DNA of 64,000 bases from Nanobdellota archaeon (GTDB lineage Archaea > Nanobdellota > Nanobdellia > Woesearchaeales > DATDXC01), in contig JBDRFR010000069.1 in NCBI GenBank assembly GCA_043818675.1, forward strand, positions 14,877 through 78,876, written 5' to 3'. Both the position numbers and the translations under genes were made by a program. Below are positions 43,858 to 62,748 of the stretch, one piece after another. The notes beneath the pieces are model-generated. The model searched no databases. It saw only the letters and a program-made list of their open reading frames with translations, and was not told the origin of the DNA. Every line of letters starts with the position of its first letter. Position 1 is the stretch's first letter.

Positions 43858-44919
43858 ATGAAACAAAACATGGTCCCGCCGGATATTGAACAGTCCTCAG
43901 ATGAGGAAGTAATTGAAGAAGAGTCTGTTGAAGAAAGGGCCGATATATCAAAAGAAGTAGCATTTGAAAAATTAAAAACCCAGCTTGAATCATTAAACCA
44001 GGTAAGGGAAACCAATAATGAGCGATTTTCAAGGATTAGTGAGCAAATAGGTGAAATTCGCAGCATGGTTATTGAAAACGAGAAGAATATGCGTGATGTT
44101 AGTATTAAAGCCACAATGGCCTCTGATTCTGTTAAAGAAGTAAAACCAGAAATTTTAGGGACCCAGGTAAGAAAAATCGACATGAAGGTTGAAACATTAA
44201 AACAAAAAATTGAGGCTAAAAACGTAATGGACAATATGATCATGCAGGAGCTTAAAGAACTGAGAGCAAAAATTAACCTTTTCAAAGGAACTGACGCAGT
44301 TTTAAGCCTTAACGAAGAAGTAAAAAATGAACTAATCAATATCTCCAAAATTAAAAATTCTGTTGAGATTCATGCAGACAAGGTTGAACAGGTTTTCGTC
44401 CATATTCAAAAGAACTTTGTAGAATTCGAAAAATTAAAAAGCCAGAATGAAAATATGCTGGCTGTAAGTTCAGCATTGCAAAAACAAGTAAATGGCCTTC
44501 AGACTCAATTAAAAACCATATCTACAAAAGATGATTTAAGCAGGTTTCGCAAAACCATAAACGATAACCTTAGCTCTATTAATAAATTCTCAAAAAATTT
44601 AAGAAAAAATAAGCAGCTGATAACTTTGCTAAAAAAGATAGAATTTCGTCTTCAAAGCATGGTTTTTGATAATAAAAAAAAGATCGGCGAATTAAAAGAG
44701 GAAGACGGAACAATAAAAAGCAGCATAGCAGAAATTGACTGTCATCTTAGCACTTTGTCAAAAAAAATAAAAAGCGCTACTCCAAAAAATCATATTAAGC
44801 ATGTCAAAAAACACTTCATGCTCCATAAGAAAAAATCAGGGATCATATTAAAAACTCTTGAAAAAATTGAAAATAAATTTTTTAGATGGTCAAAAAAATG
44901 TCAAAAGAAGAAGTTATAA
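43858..44919 (+). CDS. coiled-coil protein (353 aa)
   Basis: An acidic N-terminus is followed by long heptad-like K/E/L/I/N-rich sequence (LKTQLESLNQVRETNNERFSRISEQIGEIRSMVIENEKNM...). The gene starts 42 nt after the giant gene stop. Confidence 0.6.
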   Translation: MKQNMVPPDIEQSSDEEVIEEESVEERADISKEVAFEKLKTQLESLNQVRETNNERFSRISEQIGEIRSMVIENEKNMRDVSIKATMASDSVKEVKPEILGTQVRKIDMKVETLKQKIEAKNVMDNMIMQELKELRAKINLFKGTDAVLSLNEEVKNELINISKIKNSVEIHADKVEQVFVHIQKNFVEFEKLKSQNENMLAVSSALQKQVNGLQTQLKTISTKDDLSRFRKTINDNLSSINKFSKNLRKNKQLITLLKKIEFRLQSMVFDNKKKIGELKEEDGTIKSSIAEIDCHLSTLSKKIKSATPKNHIKHVKKHFMLHKKKSGIILKTLEKIENKFFRWSKKCQKKKL

Positions 44920-49729: not shown

Positions 49730-50911
49730 ATGGATTTACAATTAATATCAGCAATAATTTTTTCAGTATGTTTGGCTTTTTTTCTTGTATGGAAAAGAAA
49801 AAATTTAGCTGTTCAAAAAATTTTTTTCCCGGTTTTATATTTTGTCATGTATCGCACAAAAATCGGCCTTAAATTAATGGATACTATCTCTAAAAAGTAT
49901 GGAAAATTACTAAAATATTTAGGATATATTGGCATTTTTATTGGATTTTGTGGAATGGTCTTCTTATGTTTTACTTTATCAAAAAATCTGGTGATTTTAT
50001 TAACAAAACCAGAGGCAGCATCTGCTGTTGGCTTGGTTCTTCCTTTCAAGGTCAAAGGAGCATTCTTTGTGCCTTTTTTTTACTGGATAATCTCAATTTT
50101 TGTGCTTGCCGTAGTGCACGAATTTTCACATGGTGTCGTAGCCAGGTATTACGGCTTAAAAATCAAATCAAGCGGTCTTGCATTTTTATGCTTAGTCCTT
50201 CCTGTAATTCCGGCGGCGTTTGTTGAGCCCGACGAAAAAAAAATGGCAAAGCTTTCCACAAAAAAGCAGTTAAGCATTTTTGCAGCTGGCCCATTTTCAA
50301 ACATTATTCTTGCATTTATTGTATTACTATTGTTTAACTTCACACTAGCGCCATTTCTTCAGTCAATGATGTACGAAGACGGTATCAAAATTACCGGTTA
50401 TATTGAAGACAAAACTTATCCTGCGCAGGAAGCAGGCATTGAAATTGGTGAAGTAATAAAAGAAATTAATGGAGCAGAATTCAAAACACTAGACGATTTT
50501 TCAGCATTAATCCAAAATGAAAAGCCAGGTGATCAAATCCAGTTAACAACCAATATCAAAACTTATGATATTACTCTAACAGAAAATCCTGAAGATGAAA
50601 AAAAGGCATATTTGGGTGTTTATTTAATACAAAACTATGAAAAAAAAGACTGGGCAAGAAAAGGTATAGCGTTTTATATTAGTGTATTGACTACCTGGCT
50701 GGGCGGGCTTTTTTATTGGCTTTTTGTTTTAAACCTTGGAATCGGGTTATTCAATCTTATCCCTATTGGTCCGATTGACGGAGGCAGGATGCTGCATGCT
50801 GTATTGTTAAAATATTTCTCTAAGGACAGGGCCCAAAAAATCTGGAAATATACAGGGACTTTCTTTTTCCTTTTAGTTCTTACAAATGTTATGTTTGGTT
50901 TTATTCGATAA
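49730..50911 (+). CDS. site-2 protease (peptidase M50) with PDZ domain
   Basis: HEFSHGVVARYYG (HExxH in a TM helix), a PDZ-like AQEAGIEIGEVIKEINGAEFKTLDDF, and NLIPIGPIDGGRML (NxxPxxxxDG). Confidence 0.85.
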   Translation: MDLQLISAIIFSVCLAFFLVWKRKNLAVQKIFFPVLYFVMYRTKIGLKLMDTISKKYGKLLKYLGYIGIFIGFCGMVFLCFTLSKNLVILLTKPEAASAVGLVLPFKVKGAFFVPFFYWIISIFVLAVVHEFSHGVVARYYGLKIKSSGLAFLCLVLPVIPAAFVEPDEKKMAKLSTKKQLSIFAAGPFSNIILAFIVLLLFNFTLAPFLQSMMYEDGIKITGYIEDKTYPAQEAGIEIGEVIKEINGAEFKTLDDFSALIQNEKPGDQIQLTTNIKTYDITLTENPEDEKKAYLGVYLIQNYEKKDWARKGIAFYISVLTTWLGGLFYWLFVLNLGIGLFNLIPIGPIDGGRMLHAVLLKYFSKDRAQKIWKYTGTFFFLLVLTNVMFGFIR

Positions 50912-50922
50912 GGTTTTAGGAT

Positions 50923-51762
50923 ATGCAAAACATCAAGTCCGAATCAAAAATTGCATGGAAATTATTTAAAGACATTTTGATGCTTCCCGTTAATCTTCTT
51001 CTTCTGGTGTTTGGTAAAAAAAGCATATCAGATGTTTTAAGGCCAGTATCCGACATTTTCAGATTTATATTTGAAGCAAAGGTTACCATTTGGCTGGTCA
51101 TATTAAATATTATTATATATTTTGGAGTTACTTTCCTGTTAATCACTGGCATTATTGAAGAGTCTTTTATCGATTTGTATTTTATTGGGACAACCAGGGG
51201 TTTTTTGAACCTGGATTTCCCGCCTTTAATTGGTTCTTGGTTTTTCCACGCATCAGTCTTTCATTTGTTTGGAAATATGTTATTTTTGTTTATATTAGGA
51301 AGGGTTGTTGAAAAAGAGCTGGGCGGGCCTAAAACTCTGCTTATTTATTTTGGTGCGGCTATTATTTCCACGGTTGCAGACAATTTGGTCCATATTTTCA
51401 TCATACCTATTAAAGATTATGCAGTAGTCGGCGCATCTGGCGCTATTTCAGGTTTAGGCGGTGCAGCATTACTGCTTAGCCCTTTTTACTTAACTTATCT
51501 TGTTGTTGGAATACCATTGCCTATTATTTTTGTGGTTTTGCTTCAGATATACACTGATATTACAGGTGTTTTAAATCCAACATCAAACATTGGCCATATT
51601 GCACATCTAACAGGCTATTTATCTGTTGCAATTACTATGTTTCTTCTTAGCAAAAATGATAGAAATAAAATGAAAAAAGGACTGTTTATATGTATAATTA
51701 CTGTTATAGCGTCTATCTTAGTATTTATATTTGCAAATAGATTTATTGGCCTGCAGATTTAA
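50923..51762 (+). CDS. rhomboid-family intramembrane serine protease
   Basis: FFHASVFHLFGNMLFLFILG, the catalytic GASGAISGL, and IAHLTGYL. Confidence 0.8.
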   Translation: MQNIKSESKIAWKLFKDILMLPVNLLLLVFGKKSISDVLRPVSDIFRFIFEAKVTIWLVILNIIIYFGVTFLLITGIIEESFIDLYFIGTTRGFLNLDFPPLIGSWFFHASVFHLFGNMLFLFILGRVVEKELGGPKTLLIYFGAAIISTVADNLVHIFIIPIKDYAVVGASGAISGLGGAALLLSPFYLTYLVVGIPLPIIFVVLLQIYTDITGVLNPTSNIGHIAHLTGYLSVAITMFLLSKNDRNKMKKGLFICIITVIASILVFIFANRFIGLQI

Positions 51763-51785: not shown

Positions 51786-52526
51786 CTACGTTAATTCTAC
51801 ATAAAAGTAATAAACAGTTGACGCATCATCATCTCCGTTATCTGCAACCAGCATCTGAAAATCCCATATATTTCCGTCAAACCCTACTGTATTTTGGCTG
51901 ACTTCTGTTGCATATATCACTGTATTCTGATTATATTCTGTAAGTATTGTTTCATTAAAATAACTGGTCTGCGCCCCATTATTATCATACGTATTTGTTG
52001 AACGGCAGTTTAGGAGCTCCCTTGTACCGATTGTAATATTGCTGTATCCTCTGAAAGTCTCATCTATTCCGTCACTATCAGAGCTCGCCATGCCGTACAT
52101 TGACTCAAGCGTTGTATGATTGATTCCCTGTGTTCCAATAGAGCCATTGCCGCTAAAGTTTACACAATTAACATTGCCCCAATCTACTACCGTATTGTTT
52201 GCAGCATATATTTCACCGACCGGAGAAAAGCTTGAACCACCTGTCCAATCAAACATTGTATTGCCGCTTGCATCACCAAGGACAACTTTTCCGGAGATAT
52301 TACCATAGTATCCCTGCCATCTTTTTGTAACAATTGTAGTATTAATTGTAAGTTGCGTTACATTGCCTGCCTGTGCTCCAAGAGCCTGCGGATCCCCTGT
52401 TATATTAGTTCTGCTCGTAGTAACATTTTCAATAGAAGTAGGGCCATATGGATTGGCTAGAGTGATAGGTATTAAAATCGCTGCCACTAATAAAATTATT
52501 GCAATTCTTTTCATTGTTGTTTTCAT
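51786..52526 (-). CDS. secreted N-glycosylation-sequon-rich protein, paralogue 1 of 4 (246 aa)
   Basis: Signal peptide MKTTMKRIAIILLVAAILIPITLA. The conserved body is PYGPTSIENVTT...WQGY(Y/F)GNISG.VVLGD..GNTM.DWT..SSFSP.GEIYAAN...VDW..V.C.N..GNGS...GIN...LESM.GM...D.DGIDETF...YYFYVEL. Confidence 0.8.
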   Translation of the reverse strand: MKTTMKRIAIILLVAAILIPITLANPYGPTSIENVTTSRTNITGDPQALGAQAGNVTQLTINTTIVTKRWQGYYGNISGKVVLGDASGNTMFDWTGGSSFSPVGEIYAANNTVVDWGNVNCVNFSGNGSIGTQGINHTTLESMYGMASSDSDGIDETFRGYSNITIGTRELLNCRSTNTYDNNGAQTSYFNETILTEYNQNTVIYATEVSQNTVGFDGNIWDFQMLVADNGDDDASTVYYFYVELT

Positions 52527-52722
52527 TATAGCAAAGGACGTATTTTTACGAATAGCTGCATATCCTCAACAAAAGTGCATTATGTCCGCTATCATATCTG
52601 AAAACAATCACGCTTTCGTTTACATTCACATTTAATTACGTTTACGTTCACAATCCAAAGTAAGCATGAAGGATCTAAGGCAGTTGCCAAAATGTTTTAG
52701 ACACACCCTTAGTCCGTTGAAT

Positions 52723-53460
52723 TTATGCAAGTTCAACATAAAAGTAATATGCTGTCGCAAGTCCGTCACTGCCGTCATCAGCGACGATCATTTGAAAATC
52801 ATAGCTATTGCCATCAAAACCAGTTGCATCCTGGTCAACTTCTGTTGCAAAAATTACAGTCCCTTGAGATCTTTCTGTTAAAAGAGTCTCATTAAAGTAA
52901 GTGCTTTGAGCGCCATTATTATCGTATGTATTTGTTGCATGGCAATTCTGAAGCAGTGTTCCGGCTATTGTAATGTTATTCAAAGTACTAAACGTTTCAT
53001 CAATACCATCATTATCAGAACTTACCATACCAAACATAGATTCAAGTGCTGTTTGATTGATTCCTTGTGTTCCCACAGAACCGTTTCCGCTAAAATTAAC
53101 ACAGATAACATCACCCCAGTCCACAATTGTGTTGTTTGCAGCATAAATTTCTCCAATTGGTGAAAAGCTTGAATCAGCAGTCCAATCATACATTGTATTG
53201 CCGCTTGCATCACCTAAGACCACTCTTCCAGAAATATTACCAAAATAACCTTGCCAATTGCCGGTTGCTTGTGAGATATTAATCTCAAGTTTAGTATTAT
53301 TCCCTCCGTACGCGCCCAGACCCTGCGGAGCTCCCGCACTCGTATTGGTTTTATAAGTAGTTACATTTTCAATGGTTGTTGGCCCCCACGGTGCTGCTGT
53401 TACAACTGAACATAATACACTAATCACTAATAATCCTATGAGTAATATTCTCGTTGTCAT
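52723..53460 (-). CDS. secreted sequon-rich protein, paralogue 2 of 4 (245 aa)
   Basis: Same family. SD GGAGGAA lies directly upstream of the ATG (53460). Confidence 0.8.
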   Translation of the reverse strand: MTTRILLIGLLVISVLCSVVTAAPWGPTTIENVTTYKTNTSAGAPQGLGAYGGNNTKLEINISQATGNWQGYFGNISGRVVLGDASGNTMYDWTADSSFSPIGEIYAANNTIVDWGDVICVNFSGNGSVGTQGINQTALESMFGMVSSDNDGIDETFSTLNNITIAGTLLQNCHATNTYDNNGAQSTYFNETLLTERSQGTVIFATEVDQDATGFDGNSYDFQMIVADDGSDGLATAYYFYVELA

Positions 53461-53497
53461 TTTATTCCTCCATAATTACGCTTTCATTTACATTTGC

Positions 53498-53530
53498 GCA
53501 TAACAAAAATTATGCATGTTCAGCATAAAA
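53498..53530 (-). pseudogene. 33-nt relic of a paralogue 3' end/junction
   Basis: gcataacaaaaattatgcatgttcagcataaaa matches the stop-codon junction gcataacaaaaattatgcaagctcaacataaaa (53577-53609) at 30/33 positions, then diverges. Confidence 0.5.
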
Positions 53531-53588
53531 CTATATTCTTGTCTTCGTTTTTACCCTCATCAATTAAGTTGTGTAGGCATAACAAAAA

Positions 53589-54332
53589 TTATGCAAGCTC
53601 AACATAAAAGTAATAAGCTGTCGCAACTCCATCGCTGCCATCATCAGCAACAATCATCTGAAAGTCCCACTTGTTACCATCATATCCGGTAGCATCCTGG
53701 TCAACTTCTGTTGCAAAAATCACAGTCCCCTGCGATCTTTCTGTCAAAAGTGTTTCATTAAAATAAGTGCTCTGAATGCCGTTATTATCATACGTATTTG
53801 TGGCCCGGCAGTTCTCAACCATTGTTCCGGCTATTGTAATATTATTTATGCCAGTAAACGTTTCATCAATTCCATCTGTGTCTGTCGCACCCATACCATA
53901 CATAGATTCAAGTGTTGTATGATTAATTCCTTGCGATCCAATAGAGCCATTACCGCTAAAATTGACACAGATAACATCACTCCAGTCCACAATTGTTGCA
54001 TTAGCTGCATAAATTTCACCTATTGGTGAAAAGCTTGAACCAGCTGTCCAGTCATACATAGTATTGCCGTTTACATCACCCAAGACAACTTTTCCGGAAA
54101 TGTTACCAAAATAACCCTGCCAATTGCCCGTTGCTTGTGAGATATTAATTTCAAGCTGAGTATTATTCCCTCCATGTGCGCCAAGCGCCTGTGGAGTGCC
54201 GATACTCGTATTAGTTTTATAAGTAGTTACATTTTCAATGGATGTTGGCCCCCATGGTGCAGCCATCACAACCGAACATAATACAGTTATTACAAACAAC
54301 CCCAAAATCATTATTCTGATCTTCATTTTCAT
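53589..54332 (-). CDS. secreted sequon-rich protein, paralogue 3 of 4 (247 aa)
   Basis: Same family. SD GGAGGAA lies upstream. Only 35 nt separate it from paralogue 4. The 5' and 3' ends are nt-identical to paralogue 4 over 53 and 93 nt. Confidence 0.85.
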   Translation of the reverse strand: MKMKIRIMILGLFVITVLCSVVMAAPWGPTSIENVTTYKTNTSIGTPQALGAHGGNNTQLEINISQATGNWQGYFGNISGKVVLGDVNGNTMYDWTAGSSFSPIGEIYAANATIVDWSDVICVNFSGNGSIGSQGINHTTLESMYGMGATDTDGIDETFTGINNITIAGTMVENCRATNTYDNNGIQSTYFNETLLTERSQGTVIFATEVDQDATGYDGNKWDFQMIVADDGSDGVATAYYFYVELA

Positions 54333-54367
54333 TTCCTCCTTTTTATAATTTCAATTCATAACAAAAA

Positions 54368-55120
54368 TTATGCAAGCTCAACATAAAAGTAATAAGCTGT
54401 CGCAACTCCATCGCTGCCATCATCAGCAACAATCATCTGAAAGTCCCACCTGTTACCATCATAACCAACAGTATCCTGGTCAACTTGCGTTGCATAAATT
54501 ACTGTGCCTTGCGTCTTTTCTGTCAAAAGTGTCTCATTAAATTTGGTGGTTTGAACACCATTACTATCATATGTATTGGTCGCCCAACAGTTATCAATCA
54601 ATGTTCCAGCTATTGTAATGTTATTAATGCTGTTAAACGTTTCATCAATTCCATCAGTATCTGCTGCAAGCATACCATACATGGATTCAAGTATTGAATT
54701 GTTAATACCTGGAGGATTTGATCCATCAATAGAGCCGTTTCCAGTCAAGTTAAGACAAATAACGTCACCCCAGTCCACAATTGTTGCATTAGCTGCATAA
54801 ATTTCACCTATTGGTGAAAAGCTTGAACCAGCTGTCCAGTCATACATAGTATTGCCGTTTACATCACCCAGGACAACTTTTCCAGAAATGTTACCAAAAT
54901 AACCCTGCCAGTTACCCGTTGCTTGTGAGATATTGATTTCAAGCTGTGTATTATTTCCCCCGTGTGCGCCCAGCGCCTGTGGAGTGCCGACACTCGTATT
55001 AGTTTTATACGTAGTTACATTTTCAATGGATGTTGGCCCATACGGCGCAGCCATCACAACCGAACATAATACAGTTATTACAAACAACCCCAAAATCATC
55101 ATTCTTATCTTCATTTTCAT
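54368..55120 (-). CDS. secreted sequon-rich protein, paralogue 4 of 4 (250 aa)
   Basis: Same family. I place the start at ATG 55120 (MKMKIRMMILG) with GGAGGAA at 55121-55127. The track ORF extends 36 codons further (to 55228) with no support. Confidence 0.8.
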   Translation of the reverse strand: MKMKIRMMILGLFVITVLCSVVMAAPYGPTSIENVTTYKTNTSVGTPQALGAHGGNNTQLEINISQATGNWQGYFGNISGKVVLGDVNGNTMYDWTAGSSFSPIGEIYAANATIVDWGDVICLNLTGNGSIDGSNPPGINNSILESMYGMLAADTDGIDETFNSINNITIAGTLIDNCWATNTYDSNGVQTTKFNETLLTEKTQGTVIYATQVDQDTVGYDGNRWDFQMIVADDGSDGVATAYYFYVELA

Positions 55121-55248
55121 TTCCTCCTTTTTTAAATTTTTAATAATGTGTAAGCAAAAAAAAAGGGATTCAAGGCAGAAATCAAAAAGACGTGCGAGGT
55201 GTTTTAGATGTTCCCCTTGTTCTCCCAATTAATATAATACTCTAAATT

Positions 55249-55881
55249 TTAGTTATCACCCCTATCCTGGAATATACCTTTAATATCATATAATATTTGA
55301 AAAGAAGACATCTGCCCTTTTTTGATACCTTTTTCAATTTCTTCCGGGGTTATAATTTCCACCCTAAAATTCTTCAATCCCTGGTTTTGTTTTTTTATTG
55401 ATACGTCTTTAATCTTTTTCTCCAGTTCTTTTGGGAATACTGTCCCAATCATAACATCTACGTTATCGCCGCCTGGTCTAATTGCTATTATTTCAATTTT
55501 GGATAAATAATCTTCAATGCCCCAGACAAATTTTTCAATGTAATATTGGAATTCTTGATCAGGCAGAAACATAATCTTAAACAAAATTTTATGCATACCA
55601 TCAACTTTTACTAGTTTTTTATCGGCAAACCCGTTCATTATAGAAATAACATAAGCATAATCCTCAGGGATATAAAATAGTGTTCTTGGCTTTCCTTTAT
55701 CTCTGTTTGGTATTTTCTTTTTTTTGACCATGTTTGAAAATTCCAGAAGTCTTAATTGTTGGCTGATATTTGCCATTGTAGTGCTTGACTTTTCTGCAAG
55801 CTGCAAAGGAGAAAATTTACCTTTTGCAAGTTCTCTTAGAATATTCCACTTCTGTTCTGTGAATAATGTTACAAGGTCCAT
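55249..55881 (-). CDS. winged-helix (ArsR-like) transcriptional regulator with a C-terminal domain (210 aa)
   Basis: QKWNILRELAKGKFSPLQLAEKSSTTMANISQQLRLLEFSNMVKKKK is an ArsR/HTH_20-like pattern. It lies directly upstream of, and co-oriented with, the four-gene array. Confidence 0.6.
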   Translation of the reverse strand: MDLVTLFTEQKWNILRELAKGKFSPLQLAEKSSTTMANISQQLRLLEFSNMVKKKKIPNRDKGKPRTLFYIPEDYAYVISIMNGFADKKLVKVDGMHKILFKIMFLPDQEFQYYIEKFVWGIEDYLSKIEIIAIRPGGDNVDVMIGTVFPKELEKKIKDVSIKKQNQGLKNFRVEIITPEEIEKGIKKGQMSSFQILYDIKGIFQDRGDN

Positions 55882-56096: not shown

Positions 56097-58421
56097 TTAT
56101 TTATACAGGCTATCTTCAATAACTGCGATTGTATCTTCTTTTGTTTTTGCTGCTCGGAGTTTTTCTGCTGTCTCTTTATCTGACCCCATGATCCAGTCTG
56201 CAAAAATATTTTCAGATTCAGATGCATGCGCTGCATACGTTCCTTCATCCATAGTATTGATTTCATCAATCAATTCCTGCGGCGATGATACGGTAACTCC
56301 GTTCTTAAGCTTCAATGGTGGCAGCTTTTTTTGTTCTTTTTTCTTTTCTTGTTTTGCAGCTGCTTTTTTTGCCTCTTCTGGATGTTCTTTTTCGAATTTT
56401 TCCCTTTCTTTTTTAGCCTTTTCAAATTCTTCCTGCAATTCTTTTTCAGAAACAAGCTTCAGTTTTCTCTTCTTAGCTTGTTTGCCAATTTTATCCCATG
56501 CAGTGTCAAGCCTAGGTTTTAAGCCTTCCAGATAAATATCAACCATGTTAAAACTGCCAGACTTAACTTTATCAAGCGCCATCTTAAGTTCCAGTTTTAG
56601 ATCAAAAATATCAACCTCTTCCTCTCTAAGCTGTTCAATCTGATCATCCAGATCGTCTATTATATCATTATACTTATTGTAATTATCAAGTTCTTCGTCT
56701 GTTAATCTTGCATGTTCATGTAAAAGAGGCCTAAAACTTACAAAATAAGGATTGCCTCTGTTATATGCAGAATTTGAAATCATCCCTGTGCCTGTTGCAG
56801 ACTTCAGTAGAGATTGCAGCATGTAAGACCCATATTTATCTTTTATCCTGTTCAAATCGCCTTCATCACGTGTACGCATTTGAATTTCTGTATTAATATT
56901 TGCTTTTGTTTCACCTATAAAATCTGTCAGAACCTGGCTGATCAACACAAGGCCGACCCCCCATTTTCTAAATTCTCTTGCGCCTCTTTCAATTTGGATA
57001 AAACCCTGTCCGGTTCCGCCGAATTTTGGCAGCAGTCTGTGAACCTCGTCAAAAATTACAATAAGCCTTAATTGCGGGCTTTCTGGCAGGTCGGCGTGAA
57101 ATACTTCTCTGATTGTATTGGCTACAAGTATATCACTGTCTTTGGGATCAAGTTTATTGATAGCAAAAACGTGAATTTCACCAGGAATTAAGTATTTTTT
57201 TATATCAATGATCTGGCGAGCATCCATAATCTGGTGCACATTCCCGTTAAATGCTCTTGCATCCGTTTTCTTGAGTCCGTAACTAGGATACAAAGCTATC
57301 ATTTTTTTATTCGTGCATTTTCTAAGAAAGCCTGTCCACTGCGCTGTTGGGTCAAACACTATAATCGCAACTCCTTTTAACAGCGCTTCTTCTACAAGAA
57401 CTTCCGCAGAAACTGTCTTTCCACCGCCTGTTGAACCGGCAATTAGGCTGTGAATTGTCAGCTGATCCATATCAAAATACGCTTTAACTTTTGATTCAGC
57501 AATTTTTCCGATAAGAATCGACCGCTCGCCAGGTTTTGGCAGCAATTTAAAGTCAATTTTACCTTTATATCTTTTCTTTTTAGCAAGCCTTTTGCGTATT
57601 ATTAAAAATACTAATGCAGCTATTGCAAGAAAAGATAGTGTTAATAACAGCCATCTCACAGGCATTATCCCAAAAATCAGATAATCCCATATCGGTTCAC
57701 TTACTAAGAATCTCGCGCTTGCAGTTGATGATATCCCCAGATAATCCACGCGAGCTGTAATTACATACTCACCCGGTCTGATAAATTCAGGTACTTCAAA
57801 AAATTTTATAAGAGTTGTTGACTTATTAAGTCTTAAGTTCTCAGTTTCTTCCAGAAAAGTTTTGTTGACCAGATAAGTTTTTTTATCTGCCATGCTGTCA
57901 ATCGAATAATGCAAAGTAATATTAAATCCATCTTTCAATAAAAGATTATGAATATTAATCTTATACCTTAAAGTATCCTTAAGATATACTCTTTCTGATA
58001 ATGGCTCAACTTTGATAGAAATTGCGCTAATAGGAACTCCGCTAATATCCCCTACTGTTAGCATTGCAGGTATTCTTTCATTGACATTTCCGGATAAGAC
58101 TAATGTTCCGTTAAAAAAACCCATGTTATCAGCAAAAAATAAAATTTTGGCATCTGCACTTGATTTTGCCTCAAGATTAATAGTCGTCACATCAGGCACC
58201 ATATAACTGCTGATGTTGCCCTCTGATGAAAACATTACCGTTATTGGATTATCGCCTTTATTTTCAATGGTAAGCACATGCTCTTCGAATTTGCCTATTT
58301 TAACATTTTTAATTATTATATCATCCGATATTCGATAATTGCTATTTTCAATTTGTGCAGCAACATTTATAGACATTAATATTACTATTATTACTATCGC
58401 AAAACCTCTATTTTTTATCAT
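56097..58421 (-). CDS. ectodomain-TM-FtsK/HerA-type ATPase (774 aa), stand-alone paralogue of the giant protein C-terminus
   Basis: Signal/anchor MIKNRGFAIVIIVILMSINVAA, a ~240-aa ectodomain, and TM LLLTLSFLAIAALVFLII followed by RKRLAKKKRYK. Walker A AGSTGGGKT lies at 57414-57440. Also present: FDPTAQWTGFLRKC, Walker B IVIFDEVHRLLP, REFRKWGVGLVLISQ, and a K/E-rich coiled-coil tail. Confidence 0.85.
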   Translation of the reverse strand: MIKNRGFAIVIIVILMSINVAAQIENSNYRISDDIIIKNVKIGKFEEHVLTIENKGDNPITVMFSSEGNISSYMVPDVTTINLEAKSSADAKILFFADNMGFFNGTLVLSGNVNERIPAMLTVGDISGVPISAISIKVEPLSERVYLKDTLRYKINIHNLLLKDGFNITLHYSIDSMADKKTYLVNKTFLEETENLRLNKSTTLIKFFEVPEFIRPGEYVITARVDYLGISSTASARFLVSEPIWDYLIFGIMPVRWLLLTLSFLAIAALVFLIIRKRLAKKKRYKGKIDFKLLPKPGERSILIGKIAESKVKAYFDMDQLTIHSLIAGSTGGGKTVSAEVLVEEALLKGVAIIVFDPTAQWTGFLRKCTNKKMIALYPSYGLKKTDARAFNGNVHQIMDARQIIDIKKYLIPGEIHVFAINKLDPKDSDILVANTIREVFHADLPESPQLRLIVIFDEVHRLLPKFGGTGQGFIQIERGAREFRKWGVGLVLISQVLTDFIGETKANINTEIQMRTRDEGDLNRIKDKYGSYMLQSLLKSATGTGMISNSAYNRGNPYFVSFRPLLHEHARLTDEELDNYNKYNDIIDDLDDQIEQLREEEVDIFDLKLELKMALDKVKSGSFNMVDIYLEGLKPRLDTAWDKIGKQAKKRKLKLVSEKELQEEFEKAKKEREKFEKEHPEEAKKAAAKQEKKKEQKKLPPLKLKNGVTVSSPQELIDEINTMDEGTYAAHASESENIFADWIMGSDKETAEKLRAAKTKEDTIAVIEDSLYK

Positions 58422-61400
58422 TTTGACAGTTTCTCTCTCAACTCACCGCATTTCTTAATAACTTCTGATTTATACTCCGGAACAATTTTTTTGTAAATCT
58501 CATTGACTTTGTGATAAATTTCAACTGCTTCAGTTCGCTTATTATTTTCCAATTTGGATATGGCTTTGTCAATAAGGCTCTTGATATGAAACACATCCAG
58601 TTTATATGATAATGCCACAACACTTTGATAGACTTCTTTTCTCATCTCCTTTGGAAGTTTAGAATATGAACTCTGTGAATCCAGATATAGCGATTTGGCC
58701 CGATCATATTTCCCGTCATTAAGCTCTTTTTTAGCATTTTCAATGTTATTTTTTATACTGTCAACATTCTTTAAAGATGCCCGATCCAGAATATGATATT
58801 TAATATTAGTTCCTTTTAGAGTATAACCAAGGTACAAAAGTACAAGAATAATTATAACAAAAACCTCAATAACAATCCGTCTATCGCTTGTCGTAACGAA
58901 TTTTGACTTAAGATTATCGATTACTGCAAACCCGGTAATTGGCGAGAGTTCTGGTTTTTGGCCAGGATCCATAATCACAGAAACTGTAGTTTGTATTTTT
59001 TCCAGCTCAATTTCATCTTGAACGTAATAAGCAATACTTTCCGCTTCTTCTAAGCTAAGCTCAATAATGGGATCTTCTTCAATTACACTGTATTCAAACA
59101 TAAATTCAATATCATTAACGCTTTCTGCTATTTCTTTTGGGATATATTCAATCATAATATATCCATTCGAATCCAAGTCCAGGCTAAAAGCTTTTTCAAC
59201 CAGTGTATATCTCTCTTTATCATTGGATAAATATTCCAACTCAACCACAAAAGCTTTGGTTGTGACTGTCAGAAGTGATTGAAGTTTAGAATTTTGCTCA
59301 ACTACATTATTAATTTCCCTTTTTGTATATTTCTTATTTTTTTTATTCAAATACGCTAATGTTAGATTCCTGATCTCTTCTGCCTTAGGATACACAACAA
59401 ACTCCTTTGAGTCCAGAACTTTCAGGTCGGTGGGTATTGCATCCCGGATATTTGCGATTTCTGCATATATTGCATTTTCTTCCTTTTCATACTCAGTATC
59501 ATTCAGTTTTCTCCATATTAGATTGTTTAAGTCTCTTTTATATCGTGTAAGTTTAACTTTTGATTTGTCAAGTTTGACAAAAATCCCAAGAATATCCATA
59601 ACCTCTTTTTCAGTTTTGCCCTTTTTTTGAAATTCCTGATAAATTTGGTCAATTTTTGAGATCAGCGGATCAATCTCTGTGTTATCCTTATTTAACGTTT
59701 TCCCGAATAAATAAACAATAAATGTCCTTGTAGAGCTTATCTCAGAATTTCCGTGTTCATCTGTGCATTTAATTCTATACTCATAGCTTCCATTCTGAAG
59801 AGAAGTTATGCTAAATTTGTTCTCAGAGCCTTTTAAAACATTGCTTTGGCTCTCCTTTTCTATCCACCAGCTGCTATGTTCATTGATATTAAGCGCGCAA
59901 TCCACATTAGACTGATCTTCCACTCGATACAATATTTCAACACTGGTTCCTTCAATTCGCTGTTGGTCTGGTGGATTTAACAATGTTACAACAGGCCCTT
60001 TTTTGTCATTTGTATCAATTGACAAATTCACATAAAGAGTTGTATCCGCAAAAACTCTTACACTATCGTTTATATAAGTATTATAGCCGTCATGTTTCAC
60101 TTTTAATTTATACGTGCCGTAATACACCAAAAAACTGGTTTTGCCTTCCGATGTTGTATTCTTGATAACAGTATCAAACTCTACATCAGCATTTCCCACA
60201 TTTTGTTTAGAGACATTATTAACAATGATTGTAACATTGAACCTTTTTTTGACAATGATTGTTTCAATATCTGATGCCTTTTGCGCGCTGTCTGTTACAG
60301 TTAGGTTTACTTTATAAGTTCCATTTGTTGCATATGTTTTTACAAGTTCAGATGAATAGCTGTCAATAGACTTATCATTTGAAATATCCCATTGATAGGT
60401 AAGTGATCCTGTATGCCCGCTTACTATCGGAACAAATTTAACAGTTTCCCCTTCATTTATTGTGGTTTTATTGGCGCTGATCTGCACGCTGAGCGTTGAT
60501 GTGGGTGGATAAACAATAAAGCTTACTATTTTACTTTCACTATTTCCTTTGTAATACGATGTTGCATTCAGGGTATATGTGCTAGGCGAATTAATATTAT
60601 CAAGAATAGTTGTTACGTATATTGGATAATCCGAAGAATAGCCGGTTATTGACTTCCTGCTTACAACAGATCCGCCTGTTTTAACAGTCATATTGACTAT
60701 AGAATTCGCTCTTGATATGATTGTTGCTGCGATATCTTCACCTAATTCATAATTACTTTTATCCAGACTAATTGAAAAGCCTACACAATTGCCGCATTGT
60801 CCGCCGCAATCAATGCCTGTTTCACCACCGTTTTTAATACCGTCTAAACACGTTGCAGAATAACTAAAACTAAAAGAATAGCTGTATAGTTGATTATTGC
60901 CCTGCATATCAGTAGCATTTATTAAAAGAATATTTGCACCTGTCTTTAATTCCAATGTGATTGATTTTTCTTTGCCAAAATATGCCTCAGTGCTGTACTG
61001 TCCATTATTCAACTTATATGAGATAAACGCATATTCATTTGGCCGCAGCTTTAGATTGGTAATATTGCTGGAATTAGTTACTACACTATTATTCACAGGA
61101 ATGCTATTATAAGTTAGGTTTATTTTAGGAGCCGCATCATCATTAACGCTAAAACTATAATTGTATGTCAATATATTGGAATTATTATCATTAAGGCTGA
61201 TTGTTACAATATGTGCACCATTTTCAATCACGCCATTAGAAAAGCTGCCATTAAGTAGCACTGAAAAAGTTTTTGACTCAGGCAATGCTGCATATCTCTG
61301 ATTTTTAAACGATATATTTGCATATACAGGGATATCAGTTGAAAAGTTCAGATAAACATTTTCCCCGCATTTCAAAGGGCTGACGGGTGAATTGATTGTC

Positions 61401-62446
61401 AAATTTAGTTCAGACATATTAAGCGCCACAATTATTGATGAAAAGTGTGAAACATATACTTCCAGCTTATCTCCATTTTTGTGATAGCATCCTTGCGCTC
61501 CAAAATCACATTCAGGCAGTTTAACACATTCAAACGAGTCTGAACAATGCAGAACTTGGTTATAGATAATTCCCGTTATATTAAATTCCACGCGTCCCTG
61601 GTATCCTTCCTCAAGTATAACTTTCTCGATACCGCTAACTTCTATCGACTTTCGGACTATTGATCCCAAATTTTCAATATGATTTCTTAAATTCTCATCT
61701 TCTTTACTGATAGTTATTTTATCCAACTCTTCAAATTGAATATTATTGCTCTTAAAATTTTCAATACTGACAATATCACCTCCGTGGTACATATCCAGCC
61801 TCAGGTTTTGATTATGAAAATCTGATACAGCCGAACCCCCCTTTAAGTCTGTAAGTGAGATTTTACTAAGCTTATTATTTTTCTTCAGCCTCTCCAGTTT
61901 TTCAATCACAGAAAATTCTTTACTCGAAGGCTGCTTTCCATTAAAATAATCTTCATCAAGAAATACCGCATATAGATAATCATAATTACTGTAATATATT
62001 TCTGAATAGGGGTTTTCTGAGCTTACCGAATAATCAACATATAATACTCGCGCGCTCACCTTATTATTAACCGACGCATCATATTGCCCGTAATTAAGAT
62101 AAAAAATATCATTCCATTTATTCTTAGTTGCAGTAAGTCCAATAAAATTACAGCAAACATTGTTCCCATAACAAACTGTTGTCATTTTGTTTGTATCAAC
62201 GGACAATATTTCCCATCTTGTGCACAGCTTATTTTTGTTAAGATCCCAGTTGAACTCTGTATCTTCAACAGTAAAGTCAATTACACTTTTATCACCTTCA
62301 ACCCCGTCAGAATTATTGTCATAATATTTATCATTCTGATATTTAAGATTAATCTGAATTTTTTCAGATTCTGCGCAAATTACAGAAAGATTAAGCGCTA
62401 TCATTAGTAAGATTAGACAGCCCAAAATCTTAGAGTATTTCTTCAT
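58418..62446 (-). CDS. large surface protein (1342 aa): signal, Cys-rich conserved domain, Ig/PKD-like modules, C-terminal TM and helical cytoplasmic tail
   Basis: Signal MKKYSKILGCLILLMIALNLSVICA. The Cys-rich domain is shared with the 751-aa protein. A CLDGIKNGGETGIDCGGQCGNC motif lies at approx 60785-60852. A PKD-like module is present. The TM RIVIEVFVIIILVLLYLGY is followed by a ~150-aa helical tail. ATGA overlaps occur at both ends (62443-62446 and 58418-58421). Confidence 0.85.
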   Translation of the reverse strand: MKKYSKILGCLILLMIALNLSVICAESEKIQINLKYQNDKYYDNNSDGVEGDKSVIDFTVEDTEFNWDLNKNKLCTRWEILSVDTNKMTTVCYGNNVCCNFIGLTATKNKWNDIFYLNYGQYDASVNNKVSARVLYVDYSVSSENPYSEIYYSNYDYLYAVFLDEDYFNGKQPSSKEFSVIEKLERLKKNNKLSKISLTDLKGGSAVSDFHNQNLRLDMYHGGDIVSIENFKSNNIQFEELDKITISKEDENLRNHIENLGSIVRKSIEVSGIEKVILEEGYQGRVEFNITGIIYNQVLHCSDSFECVKLPECDFGAQGCYHKNGDKLEVYVSHFSSIIVALNMSELNLTINSPVSPLKCGENVYLNFSTDIPVYANISFKNQRYAALPESKTFSVLLNGSFSNGVIENGAHIVTISLNDNNSNILTYNYSFSVNDDAAPKINLTYNSIPVNNSVVTNSSNITNLKLRPNEYAFISYKLNNGQYSTEAYFGKEKSITLELKTGANILLINATDMQGNNQLYSYSFSFSYSATCLDGIKNGGETGIDCGGQCGNCVGFSISLDKSNYELGEDIAATIISRANSIVNMTVKTGGSVVSRKSITGYSSDYPIYVTTILDNINSPSTYTLNATSYYKGNSESKIVSFIVYPPTSTLSVQISANKTTINEGETVKFVPIVSGHTGSLTYQWDISNDKSIDSYSSELVKTYATNGTYKVNLTVTDSAQKASDIETIIVKKRFNVTIIVNNVSKQNVGNADVEFDTVIKNTTSEGKTSFLVYYGTYKLKVKHDGYNTYINDSVRVFADTTLYVNLSIDTNDKKGPVVTLLNPPDQQRIEGTSVEILYRVEDQSNVDCALNINEHSSWWIEKESQSNVLKGSENKFSITSLQNGSYEYRIKCTDEHGNSEISSTRTFIVYLFGKTLNKDNTEIDPLISKIDQIYQEFQKKGKTEKEVMDILGIFVKLDKSKVKLTRYKRDLNNLIWRKLNDTEYEKEENAIYAEIANIRDAIPTDLKVLDSKEFVVYPKAEEIRNLTLAYLNKKNKKYTKREINNVVEQNSKLQSLLTVTTKAFVVELEYLSNDKERYTLVEKAFSLDLDSNGYIMIEYIPKEIAESVNDIEFMFEYSVIEEDPIIELSLEEAESIAYYVQDEIELEKIQTTVSVIMDPGQKPELSPITGFAVIDNLKSKFVTTSDRRIVIEVFVIIILVLLYLGYTLKGTNIKYHILDRASLKNVDSIKNNIENAKKELNDGKYDRAKSLYLDSQSSYSKLPKEMRKEVYQSVVALSYKLDVFHIKSLIDKAISKLENNKRTEAVEIYHKVNEIYKKIVPEYKSEVIKKCGELREKLSK
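60245..60485 (-). other. PKD-like domain in the 1342-aa protein
   Basis: INEGETVKFVPIVSGHTGSLTYQWDISNDKSIDSYSSELVKTYATNGTYKVNLTVTDSAQKASDIETIIV. Confidence 0.65.
61960..62330 (-). other. conserved Cys-rich domain (copy 2 of 2 in window)
   Basis: See 3253-3630. The shared strings are LCTRW, TVCYG, CCNFIGL and FYLNYG. Confidence 0.7.
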
Positions 62447-62748
62447 TTACTAGCCTCAATCTTAAGTTGATTTTTGATCTCATTTAATTCACTGACCACT
62501 TTCTTAGTGACTTCTTTTTCACTCTTTTTTCTAATTTCATCCATGATATCCTTTCTTAATCTTGCAACCTCTGCAAGTTCTGGATACATCGATTTTAGCC
62601 AATTTTTTCTGGTAATGCTCCTAATCTTTTCACTAACGTCCATATAGTGCTCTTTTTCAGCGAGCTCTTTAAGTTTAGACAATAATGATTCAGGCATCCT
62701 TACAGAAACCAGGACATCACTCAAACAAATCACCCTTATCACAAACAC
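62443..62748 (-). CDS. RHH (CopG-like) DNA-binding protein
   Basis: VLVSVRMPESLLSKLKELAEKEHYMDVSEKIRSITRKNW has a strand followed by two helices. The real start is probably TTG 62724 or ATG 62697 rather than the track GTG 62748. The stop overlaps the 1342-aa gene start. Confidence 0.55.
   Translation of the reverse strand: MFVIRVICLSDVLVSVRMPESLLSKLKELAEKEHYMDVSEKIRSITRKNWLKSMYPELAEVARLRKDIMDEIRKKSEKEVTKKVVSELNEIKNQLKIEASK

Follow-up and report, generated by a model that had tools for sequence, protein, structure and literature searches.

Extracellular filaments held together by donor-strand contacts include Sulfolobus threads, Pyrobaculum bundling pili (AbpA), Pyrodictium cannulae (CanA), and Bacillus TasA (PMC9715654, PMC9245690, bioRxiv 10.1101/2024.12.30.630787, PMC9674648). 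Assembly of these filaments is extracellular and involves no dedicated ATPase in the cytoplasm; their Sec-exported, beta-rich subunits of ~20-25 kDa are often glycosylated, carry a conserved N-terminal segment, and are encoded by clustered paralogues. Here, we analyzed an array of four tandem paralogues with a similar set of predicted traits, located at positions 51786-55120 of a 64,000-nucleotide stretch of contig JBDRFR010000069.1 from a Nanobdellota archaeon assigned to the Woesearchaeales (assembly GCA_043818675.1, positions 14,877 to 78,876; the whole stretch is hereafter called the window). Woesearchaeota and Pacearchaeota are among the most widespread uncultured archaea, and their envelope genes are mostly unannotated. 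The features of the array proteins and of their homologues gave good support for placing them in a DPANN-specific family of surface proteins that are exported and probably both N-glycosylated and disulfide-bonded. All four co-oriented minus-strand open reading frames (ORFs) described in an earlier interpretation made from the letters alone (hereafter, the sequence-only reading) were present downstream of a winged helix-turn-helix (wHTH) regulator gene:

51786-52526, minus strand: copy 1, 246 aa, family hidden Markov model (HMM) score 317, without an obvious Shine-Dalgarno sequence
52723-53460, minus strand: copy 2, 245 aa
53589-54332, minus strand: copy 3, 247 aa, the query for both structure models
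54368-55120, minus strand: copy 4, 250 aa, the first gene past the regulator, 35 nt upstream of copy 3

Pairwise protein identity among the four copies ranged from 63 to 87%, copy 1 being the most diverged paralogue (63-66% identity to copies 2-4). GGAGG precedes the ATG by 5-8 nt in copies 4, 3, and 2. The ORF of copy 4 is extendable to a TTG at 55228; its MKMKIR start together with the GGAGG Shine-Dalgarno sequence matches copy 3. The spacers measure 128 nt (wHTH gene to copy 4), 35 nt (copy 4 to copy 3, as the sequence-only reading had it), 128 nt (copy 3 to copy 2), and 196 nt (copy 2 to copy 1), and TAATTTTTGTTATG lies directly 3' of copy 4 and of copy 3. Judging from the 35-nt spacer and the shared Shine-Dalgarno sequence, copies 4 and 3 appear to be co-transcribed, and transcription of the array probably starts downstream of the dedicated winged-helix regulator. 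A common motif, ATGTAAA(C/T)GAAAGCGT(A/G)ATT, precedes copies 1 and 2 on the minus strand (52605-52626 and 53474-53494). Upstream of copy 1, a partial second copy of this motif occurs 22 nt away, visible as a direct repeat on the plus strand (52614-52630 and 52636-52652). No such motif was seen ahead of copy 4; where present, it is a candidate for a promoter or operator.

The N-termini of all copies consist of a basic start, a hydrophobic stretch of ~17 aa, and an A-x-A-type site one or two residues before a conserved P-x-G-P. These features agreed with the cleavable-looking signal peptides noted previously and identified each as Sec-type, cleavage being judged by rule of thumb and not by a trained predictor. 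With the signal removed, the mature proteins would begin with (A/N)-P-(W/Y)-G-P, comprise 222-226 aa (~24 kDa), and have an isoelectric point (pI) of ~4.05 with a combined 4-7 Lys plus Arg residues. Every copy contains two invariant Cys residues and 11 N-x-S/T sequons whose positions are conserved, and every copy ends in YYFYVEL(A/T); the Cys pair, the many sequons, and this C-terminus had been recognized earlier. The chain stops one or two residues past YYFYVEL, with neither a C-terminal transmembrane (TM) segment nor a PGF-CTERM motif.

A word-indexed search retrieved 171 homologues, all of them annotated as 'hypothetical' and without a Pfam domain; the sources named were Woesearchaeota, Pacearchaeota, Nanoarchaeia, or a generic 'bacterium'. 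An exhaustive profile search yielded 1,469 cluster representatives (50% identity) at E <= 1e-3 and 497 at E <= 1e-30, and these searches suggested that the family is large and essentially restricted to Woesearchaeota/Pacearchaeota. Family members were also seen in records labelled otherwise, namely L066 (9527-10576; Ca. Methanogaster, ANME-2) and L060 (9746-10567; Nitrosotalea), both divergent with HMM scores of about 104-106, and approximately ten family-bearing records were labelled 'uncultured Methanosarcinales'. Such non-DPANN labels could reflect horizontal transfer, mis-binning, or mislabelling.

Family statistics were computed from 116 full-length members encoded at 64 loci of species-representative genomes. 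ORFs at these related loci were called by a first-ATG rule and grouped by single-linkage clustering; because one cluster (cluster 0) merged unrelated multidomain proteins, the counts for that cluster rest on direct BLAST or HMM matches, and E-values of the local searches refer to small databases. An N-terminal hydrophobic segment was present in 110 of the 116 members, and 107 contained exactly two Cys residues. Members carried 9.3 sequons on average as compared with 3.9 after shuffling, a 2.4-fold enrichment, and their composition was acidic (pI about 4.05) with a Lys plus Arg content of about 3%. Across the family, small residues dominated the positions two and four residues before the conserved P-x-G-(P/A), which are -1 and -3 of the presumed cleavage site. 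Taken with the Sec-type signal, the conserved cleavage context, and the Cys pair, the sequon enrichment and the acidic, K/R-poor composition make the array proteins look extracellular, in line with the surface location proposed in the sequence-only reading. Near-invariant or invariant positions within the N-terminal 45 residues of the mature protein were P2, G4, A28, A30, G31, N32, and T34, and the conserved motif A-x-A-G-N-x-T includes an invariant Asn. The invariant polar and aromatic positions also included W71, W95, W117, D223, and E245.

The family had not been recognized from the letters alone, and the database comparisons gave the same picture. The four copies and 61 further family members had no Pfam match at E <= 5; no NCBIfam, PHROGs, or PADLOC model matched the family, and a profile search of PDB sequences returned nothing below E 0.15 (noise such as leucine-rich-repeat designs). 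AlphaFold monomer models of copy 3 predicted a beta-rich to all-beta mature fold without an N-terminal alpha-helical stalk, in which the core reached predicted local distance difference test (pLDDT) values of 85-96 and the N-terminal ~45 mature residues ~44-66. A search of solved structures, those of filament and S-layer proteins among them, gave no significant neighbour for either model, so that the fold search called for earlier left no known PDB entry as a match. The abundance and the role as sheath, S-layer-associated, or fibre subunits put forward in the sequence-only reading are conjectures. The predicted fold thus appears to be absent from solved structures. The N-terminal arm, the sole low-confidence part of both models, nevertheless holds some of the most conserved positions, which hints at self-association. 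We found no description of the family, of the ATPases discussed below, or of the archaeal S59 fusions in the literature library available to us, which is incomplete, so that an earlier description is possible.

The family domain also occurred in larger proteins. About a dozen of the best 150 matches of the exhaustive search were 470-1,635 aa long and carried the domain at the extreme C-terminus, preceded by a signal or anchor, low-complexity stalks, and immunoglobulin (Ig)-like domains or a right-handed beta-helix. With this architecture, anchored proteins would carry the family domain at the end farthest from the membrane. Several of these multidomain members (the metagenomic relatives P0197, P0231, P0241, and P0254) contained a Nup98-type S59 autopeptidase module with the canonical H-F-S self-cleavage motif, located between Ig-like domains and upstream of the C-terminal family domain; the PF04096 score reached 31 bits (P0197), above the cut-off. 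The S59 Pfam family (PF04096) is generally regarded as eukaryotic, and our literature search found no description of a prokaryotic S59 autopeptidase.

A second link to membrane proteins was provided by the ATPase operon that lies upstream of the array and its regulator:

56097-58421, minus strand: ATPase, 774 aa, with a signal/anchor, an Ig-like ectodomain (~residues 23-250), a TM segment, a cytoplasmic HerA/DUF87 domain, and a coiled coil
58418-62446, minus strand: surface protein, 1342 aa, with a signal peptide, PKD/Ig domains, a C-terminal TM segment, and a coiled-coil tail; 4-nt overlap with the ATPase gene
62443-62748, minus strand: small ribbon-helix-helix (RHH) protein heading the ATPase operon; 4-nt overlap with the next gene

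The ATPase scored above the Pfam cut-offs for PF01935 (46.2 bits, cut-off 23.2) and PF05872 (27.5 bits, cut-off 22) and matched HerA entries of the PDB down to E 2.6e-5, which assigns its DUF87/HerA P-loop domain to the FtsK-HerA superfamily. An ATPase homologue was encoded within 10 kb of family genes at 7 of the 64 genome loci. In the reverse direction, 80 metagenomic loci chosen by the ATPase contained free family genes within 10 kb in 14 cases, the wHTH gene in 13, a homologue of the big surface protein in 42, and the RHH gene in 20. A recurrent module ran in the order ATPase, ~110-aa protein, ~285-aa coiled-coil protein, family gene, wHTH gene, family gene, and polytopic membrane protein. 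Furthermore, 25 of the 80 ATPases were long forms of 1,100-1,700 aa, the first ~250 extracellular residues of which matched the family HMM over nearly its full length. A comparison of the family profile with the ectodomains of these 25 proteins (hhalign 99.6%, E 7.4e-25, 177 columns) covered the AG-x-x-T-E-L...W-x-G-x-Y-G and F/Y-Q-M...YYF motifs. These data indicated that the family domain forms the N-terminal ectodomain of long ATPases, which we term ecto-HerA, and that the association between family and ATPase, as judged from gene neighborhoods and profile matches, is real but facultative. Since the free proteins carry their own Sec signals, the association would be one of shared extracellular modules and not of cargo and pump. 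Of the two roles that the sequence-only reading had offered for the array proteins, cargo or partners of the ATPase, that of partner fitted the synteny and the ectodomain homology better, and that of cargo became unlikely.

Across the 64 loci, family copies numbered one to six per locus and were mostly co-oriented and adjacent. Two subfamilies, A and B, were distinguished and often formed adjacent A-B pairs. In the closest relatives of the window (L004, L070, L072, and L074), the ATPase of which is 72-74% identical to that of the window, the gene order is big surface protein, ATPase, wHTH, a single family gene, and a 308-aa secreted protein. The four window copies were mutual best matches and showed 52-55% identity to the nearest outside homologues (L004 and L005). 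The single copy in the closest relatives and the mutual best matches point to a recent, lineage-specific tandem amplification from one copy to four; other lineage-specific duplications were seen at L006 and L011. A trace of a further event may be preserved in the spacer between copies 3 and 2:

53498-53533, minus strand: relic of a family-gene 3' end and flank, 36 nt, encoding FYAEHA* as compared with FYVELA*, followed by TAATTTTTGTTATGC

This relic corresponds to the last ~18 nt of the gene plus the 3' flank. Its identity to the true copy 3 and copy 4 ends is ~89%, and it was probably left behind when a fifth copy was lost or an unequal crossover took place. In relatives (L004 6575-7501, L006 7974-8930, L003 9459-10442, L013 12424-13389, and L070 6863-7789), the gene immediately after the family gene or genes encodes a conserved secreted or anchored protein of 308-327 aa with many Cys residues and sequons and no Pfam match; a tblastn search found no counterpart in the window.

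The regulator gene recurs with the family as well:

55249-55881, minus strand: wHTH gene, 210 aa, with an N-terminal wHTH of ~75 aa and a C-terminal domain of ~130 aa without a known type

As the sequence-only reading had indicated, this gene lies directly upstream of the array on the same strand. Up to 400 nt upstream on the same strand, the nearest gene to each of 126 family genes was a further family gene 38 times, a homologue of the wHTH gene 21 times, and a gene for a small HTH_38-type protein 10 times; the wHTH homologues at other loci were 33-60% identical to that of the window. The occurrence of the wHTH gene ahead of 21 of the 126 family genes therefore represents a conserved linkage and not an accident of the window. 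The product is, from its sequence, clearly a wHTH protein, and this part of the earlier label 'ArsR-like regulator' held. The ArsR assignment was not secure, because all HTH models scored below their cut-offs (HTH_20, 17.9 bits, cut-off 27; HTH_5, 13.6, cut-off 22; NCBIfam HTH_metalloreg, 26.1, cut-off 55) and the Lrs14 and MarR models scored similarly. No inverted repeats or palindromes were found between the wHTH gene and copy 4 (55100-55260).

We then compared the copies at the nucleotide level. Copies 3 and 4 are identical over the following paired tracts, to which no strand is assigned:

53578-53670 = 54357-54449: 93-nt tract, the 3' end of copy 3 plus an 11-nt flank with a T5 run, identical at copy 4
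53982-54082 = 54770-54870: 101-nt tract, the longest conversion tract
54259-54311 = 55047-55099: 53-nt tract in the signal-peptide region
54319-54344 = 55107-55132: 26-nt tract with the Shine-Dalgarno sequence and start codon

The 93-nt identity was exact and ended at these positions on both sides, and the reported ~53-nt signal-peptide region plus Shine-Dalgarno sequence resolved into the exact 53-nt and 26-nt tracts; the tracts listed in the sequence-only reading were thus right, and the longer 101-nt tract had been overlooked. The synonymous divergence (dS) between copies 3 and 4 was 0.14 (codons 0-25), 0.28 (25-125), 0.82 (125-222), and 0.00 (222-250), whereas copies 2 and 3 gave 1.59, 0.54, 0.79, and 1.24 in the same segments. 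Three of the copy 3/4 tracts were significant (p <= 0.0002) when the order of the 312 polymorphic sites was permuted, a procedure that ignores rate heterogeneity along the gene, and for this reason the dS pattern is the stronger evidence. Copies 3 and 4 have been homogenized by gene conversion, and the nucleotide comparison, the tract permutation, and the dS gradient agree with the concerted evolution proposed earlier. Because dS in the middle is similar across pairs, copies 2, 3, and 4 are about equally old there, and the ends of copies 3 and 4 have been homogenized; because the signal resides at synonymous sites, selection alone cannot explain these ends. The ratio of nonsynonymous to synonymous divergence (dN/dS) was 0.15-0.25 in the divergent segment (~0.18 in the middle of copies 3 and 4), which indicates purifying selection. 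We accordingly rejected diversifying selection in the variable middle, and the earlier description of the copies as diversified there was overstated; the middle segment represents older divergence that conversion has not erased. The 'extra DGSNPPGIN' of copy 4 is in fact a 3-residue insertion within a replaced segment.

To account for these observations, we tentatively favor, at somewhat less than even probability, a model in which the array products are acidic, glycosylated subunits of the cell surface that bind one another and attach to anchored domains homologous to themselves. The proteins, on this model Sec-exported, disulfide-bonded, heavily N-glycosylated, acidic, and ~24 kDa in size, would remain on the cell surface after signal-peptide cleavage and would form a coat, fibre, or matrix by self-association. 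Contacts between neighbouring subunits would be made by the conserved N-terminal arm (~45 residues; x-P-x-G-P ... A-x-A-G-N-x-T-x-L), and the assembly would dock on membrane-anchored homologous domains, namely the ectodomains of long ecto-HerA ATPases and the distal C-terminal ends of stalk proteins, with multiple copies providing dosage and surface variants. Gene structure, family membership, secretion-type sequence features, conversion, the conserved regulator linkage, and the domain shared with the ATPase are observed; glycosylation, surface retention, self-assembly, and docking are inferred. We favor this model because the domain occurs both free in high local copy number and anchored (ATPase and stalks), because A-B pairing suggests stoichiometric partners, because the conserved, unmodelled N-terminal arm resembles the inter-subunit elements of filaments and lattices, and because the composition resembles that of archaeal envelope proteins. 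Several points weigh against this model. Polymerization is conjectural, the structure models being those of single chains, and the predicted fold matches no filament, pilin, or S-layer structure among solved structures. The N-terminus may be an uncleaved anchor instead of a cleaved signal. The window contains four A-type copies and no B-type copy, its own short ATPase has an ectodomain without the family domain (score -1.7), and the ATPase link is facultative, since free family genes occur at only 14 of the 80 ATPase loci. Finally, a binding module would explain the place of the domain at the distal tips of stalk fusions no less well than a docking site would.

The last point leads to the main alternative, possible albeit doubtful, in which the proteins act as monomeric cell-surface or secreted binding modules (adhesin- or lectin-like) for host cells or glycans, displayed through an uncleaved anchor or on stalks, with the paralogues providing alternative specificities. 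DPANN archaea are thought to depend on host contact, and the far C-terminus of N-terminally anchored stalk, Ig-like, or beta-helix proteins is the tip position expected of an adhesin. The family gene has also evolved fast (52-54% identity to L004, compared with 74% for the ATPase and 60% for the wHTH protein), and the neighborhood is rich in giant adhesin-like proteins (Laminin_G_3, FG-GAP, and PKD). Binding modules would explain the stalk-tip position and the fast evolution equally well. However, no similarity to lectin or adhesin folds was found, the dN/dS of the divergent segment does not point to diversifying selection, the unmodelled N-terminal arm, in place of an obvious pocket, is among the best-conserved parts, and A-B pairing and high local copy number suit structural stoichiometry better. 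It is less probable, and in our view unlikely, that the proteins are secreted enzymes, toxins, or nutrient-scavenging proteins of a new fold without a structural role. Secretion and a fold without a known match would be compatible with this idea, and the invariant W71, W95, W117, D223, E245, and other residues might line an active or binding site. Against it, the searches turned up neither a catalytic motif nor a matching family, membrane-anchored surface proteins and the ATPase ectodomain use the domain as a module, and a multicopy tandem array under its own regulator is more typically seen for structural surface proteins.

Export or energization of the array proteins by the adjacent FtsK/HerA-type ATPase, in the manner of type VII secretion (EssC with small secreted paralogues), appeared very unlikely. 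Family genes do adjoin a membrane ATPase of this superfamily in the window and at several other loci, but every copy has its own Sec-type signal peptide, the 10 kb around most family loci contain no ATPase gene, and free family genes are missing from most ATPase loci. That the ATPase bears the family domain on its own extracellular side argues for interaction and against transport, and the proteins are beta-rich in prediction, not helical hairpins of the WXG type. The lowest probability, marginally below that of ATPase-driven export, was given to an integrated virus or plasmid (with capsid or spike proteins, a packaging-type ATPase, and RHH and wHTH genes) or an artefact of metagenome assembly. 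HerA/FtsK ATPases and RHH and wHTH genes are common on archaeal mobile elements; against this stand the lack of any family member on 2.9 million IMG/VR contigs and of a PHROG match, the absence of tRNA genes within the window, the flanking housekeeping genes (aIF5A, histone, eRF1, and the M50 and rhomboid proteases), and the recurrence of the module at chromosomal loci on contigs of up to 965 kb. As for an artefact, the four proteins are known from one contig (89.7 kb) of a single metagenome-assembled genome labelled 'Nanoarchaeota archaeon' (locus tags ABIC04_04055 to ABIC04_04070). Assembly duplication as the source of the identity tracts, which had been considered with the sequence-only reading, and likewise a collapsed assembly, fit poorly with the copies themselves, all of which are intact and differ at 13-37% of residues, with identical tracts of at most 101 nt interleaved with divergent sequence.

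The window contains a further ATPase of the same class and a neighbour related to the recurrent module:

7519-43815, plus strand: giant uninterrupted ORF, 12,098 aa, with an N-terminal signal/anchor, a huge ectodomain, one TM segment, and a C-terminal cytoplasmic HerA/DUF87 ATPase
43858-44919, plus strand: coiled-coil protein, 353 aa, directly after the 12,098-aa ORF

The first and last 1,500 aa of the giant protein contain Laminin_G_3, FG-GAP, NPCBM_assoc, and CarboxypepD_reg domains; its TM segment lies at residues 11616-11634, and its ATPase is 44% identical (485 bits) to the product of 56097-58421. From this similarity, the giant ORF, which contains no family domain and is not part of the array, appears to encode the array-adjacent ATPase class a second time, in fused form. 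In other Woesearchaeota, homologues of the coiled-coil protein (30% identity, E 3e-23) are encoded between the genes for the ecto-HerA ATPase and the family, and it was the only one of 13 conserved neighbour families of related loci detected in the window by tblastn. Genes for two proteases of the intramembrane type, an M50 site-2 protease with a PDZ domain (49730-50911, plus strand) and a rhomboid protease (50923-51762, plus strand), converge on the 3' end of the array. Nearby ORFs encode an archaeal-type histone fold, an aIF5A-like protein, and eRF1.

For Woesearchaeota and Pacearchaeota, whose means of building a surface and of contacting other cells have hardly been described, the present analysis defines a large, lineage-specific family of putative exported glycoproteins without a known fold, reveals a dedicated regulator that travels with the family, and ties the family to the ectodomain of the ecto-HerA ATPase by homology as well as by proximity. 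The array thereby gives testable candidates for the cell-surface and host-interaction machinery of DPANN archaea and offers a clean natural example of tandem amplification and gene conversion in a reduced archaeal genome. In a more far-reaching and rather improbable scenario, the family domain would be the building block of an unseen DPANN apparatus, in which display of the domain, or of giant adhesin-like ectodomains, by a hexameric membrane ecto-HerA nucleates or anchors free glycosylated subunits. If true, archaea would possess an appendage or conduit of a new class that links a pumping ATPase in the cytoplasm to the exterior and might be used to attach to a host or to pass DNA or other material between a Woesearchaeote and its partner.

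Comparison with known systems placed the array among several familiar designs. Type VII secretion (EssC/EccC with WXG100 proteins) and Ced or conjugation systems likewise combine a membrane FtsK/HerA-class ATPase with adjoining small exported paralogues. In contrast to the type VII substrates, the array paralogues have Sec signals and a beta-rich predicted fold in place of helical hairpins, and unlike EssC, VirB4, and CedB-type ATPases, the ATPase class of the window has a large ectodomain (Ig-like, family-like, or >11,000 aa). Matches to the NCBIfam models CedD and TraD were far below cut-off. S-layer glycoproteins share the Sec signal, dense sequons, acidic K/R-poor composition, and a neighborhood of envelope genes, whereas the array proteins are far smaller and multicopy and lack a C-terminal TM segment or PGF-CTERM motif and any known S-layer Pfam domain.

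Archaellins and type IV pilins, which together with the donor-strand filaments are the nearest functional analogies, resemble the array in being tandem gene-converted paralogues and N-glycosylated surface subunits present in multiple copies under local regulators. They differ in that the A-x-A site of the array proteins follows the hydrophobic stretch and the mature chain has no N-terminal helix. A class III (prepilin) signal was rejected on sequence, since the cleavage context lies past the hydrophobic stretch. The window ORFs that were scanned, which were not all of its ORFs, included no FlaI/PilB ATPase, FlaJ/PilC, or prepilin peptidase; they yielded the HerA-type ATPase, PKD protein, RHH, wHTH, M50, rhomboid, AAA, and eRF1. 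By analogy only, the family-domain fusions could correspond to the FimH-type tip adhesins of chaperone-usher pili as specialized anchor or tip subunits of an assembly of free subunits; these systems differ in that there is no homology, chaperone, or usher, the orientation of the fusion differs, and some fusions carry the Nup98-like S59 module. The array proteins differ from the donor-strand filaments in having no Peptidase_M73/TasA Pfam match and no fold similarity to solved subunits. Even so, with their Sec-exported, beta-rich subunits, conserved N-terminal segment, and clustered paralogues, the donor-strand filaments would offer the best functional analogy for the proposed self-assembly of the array proteins.

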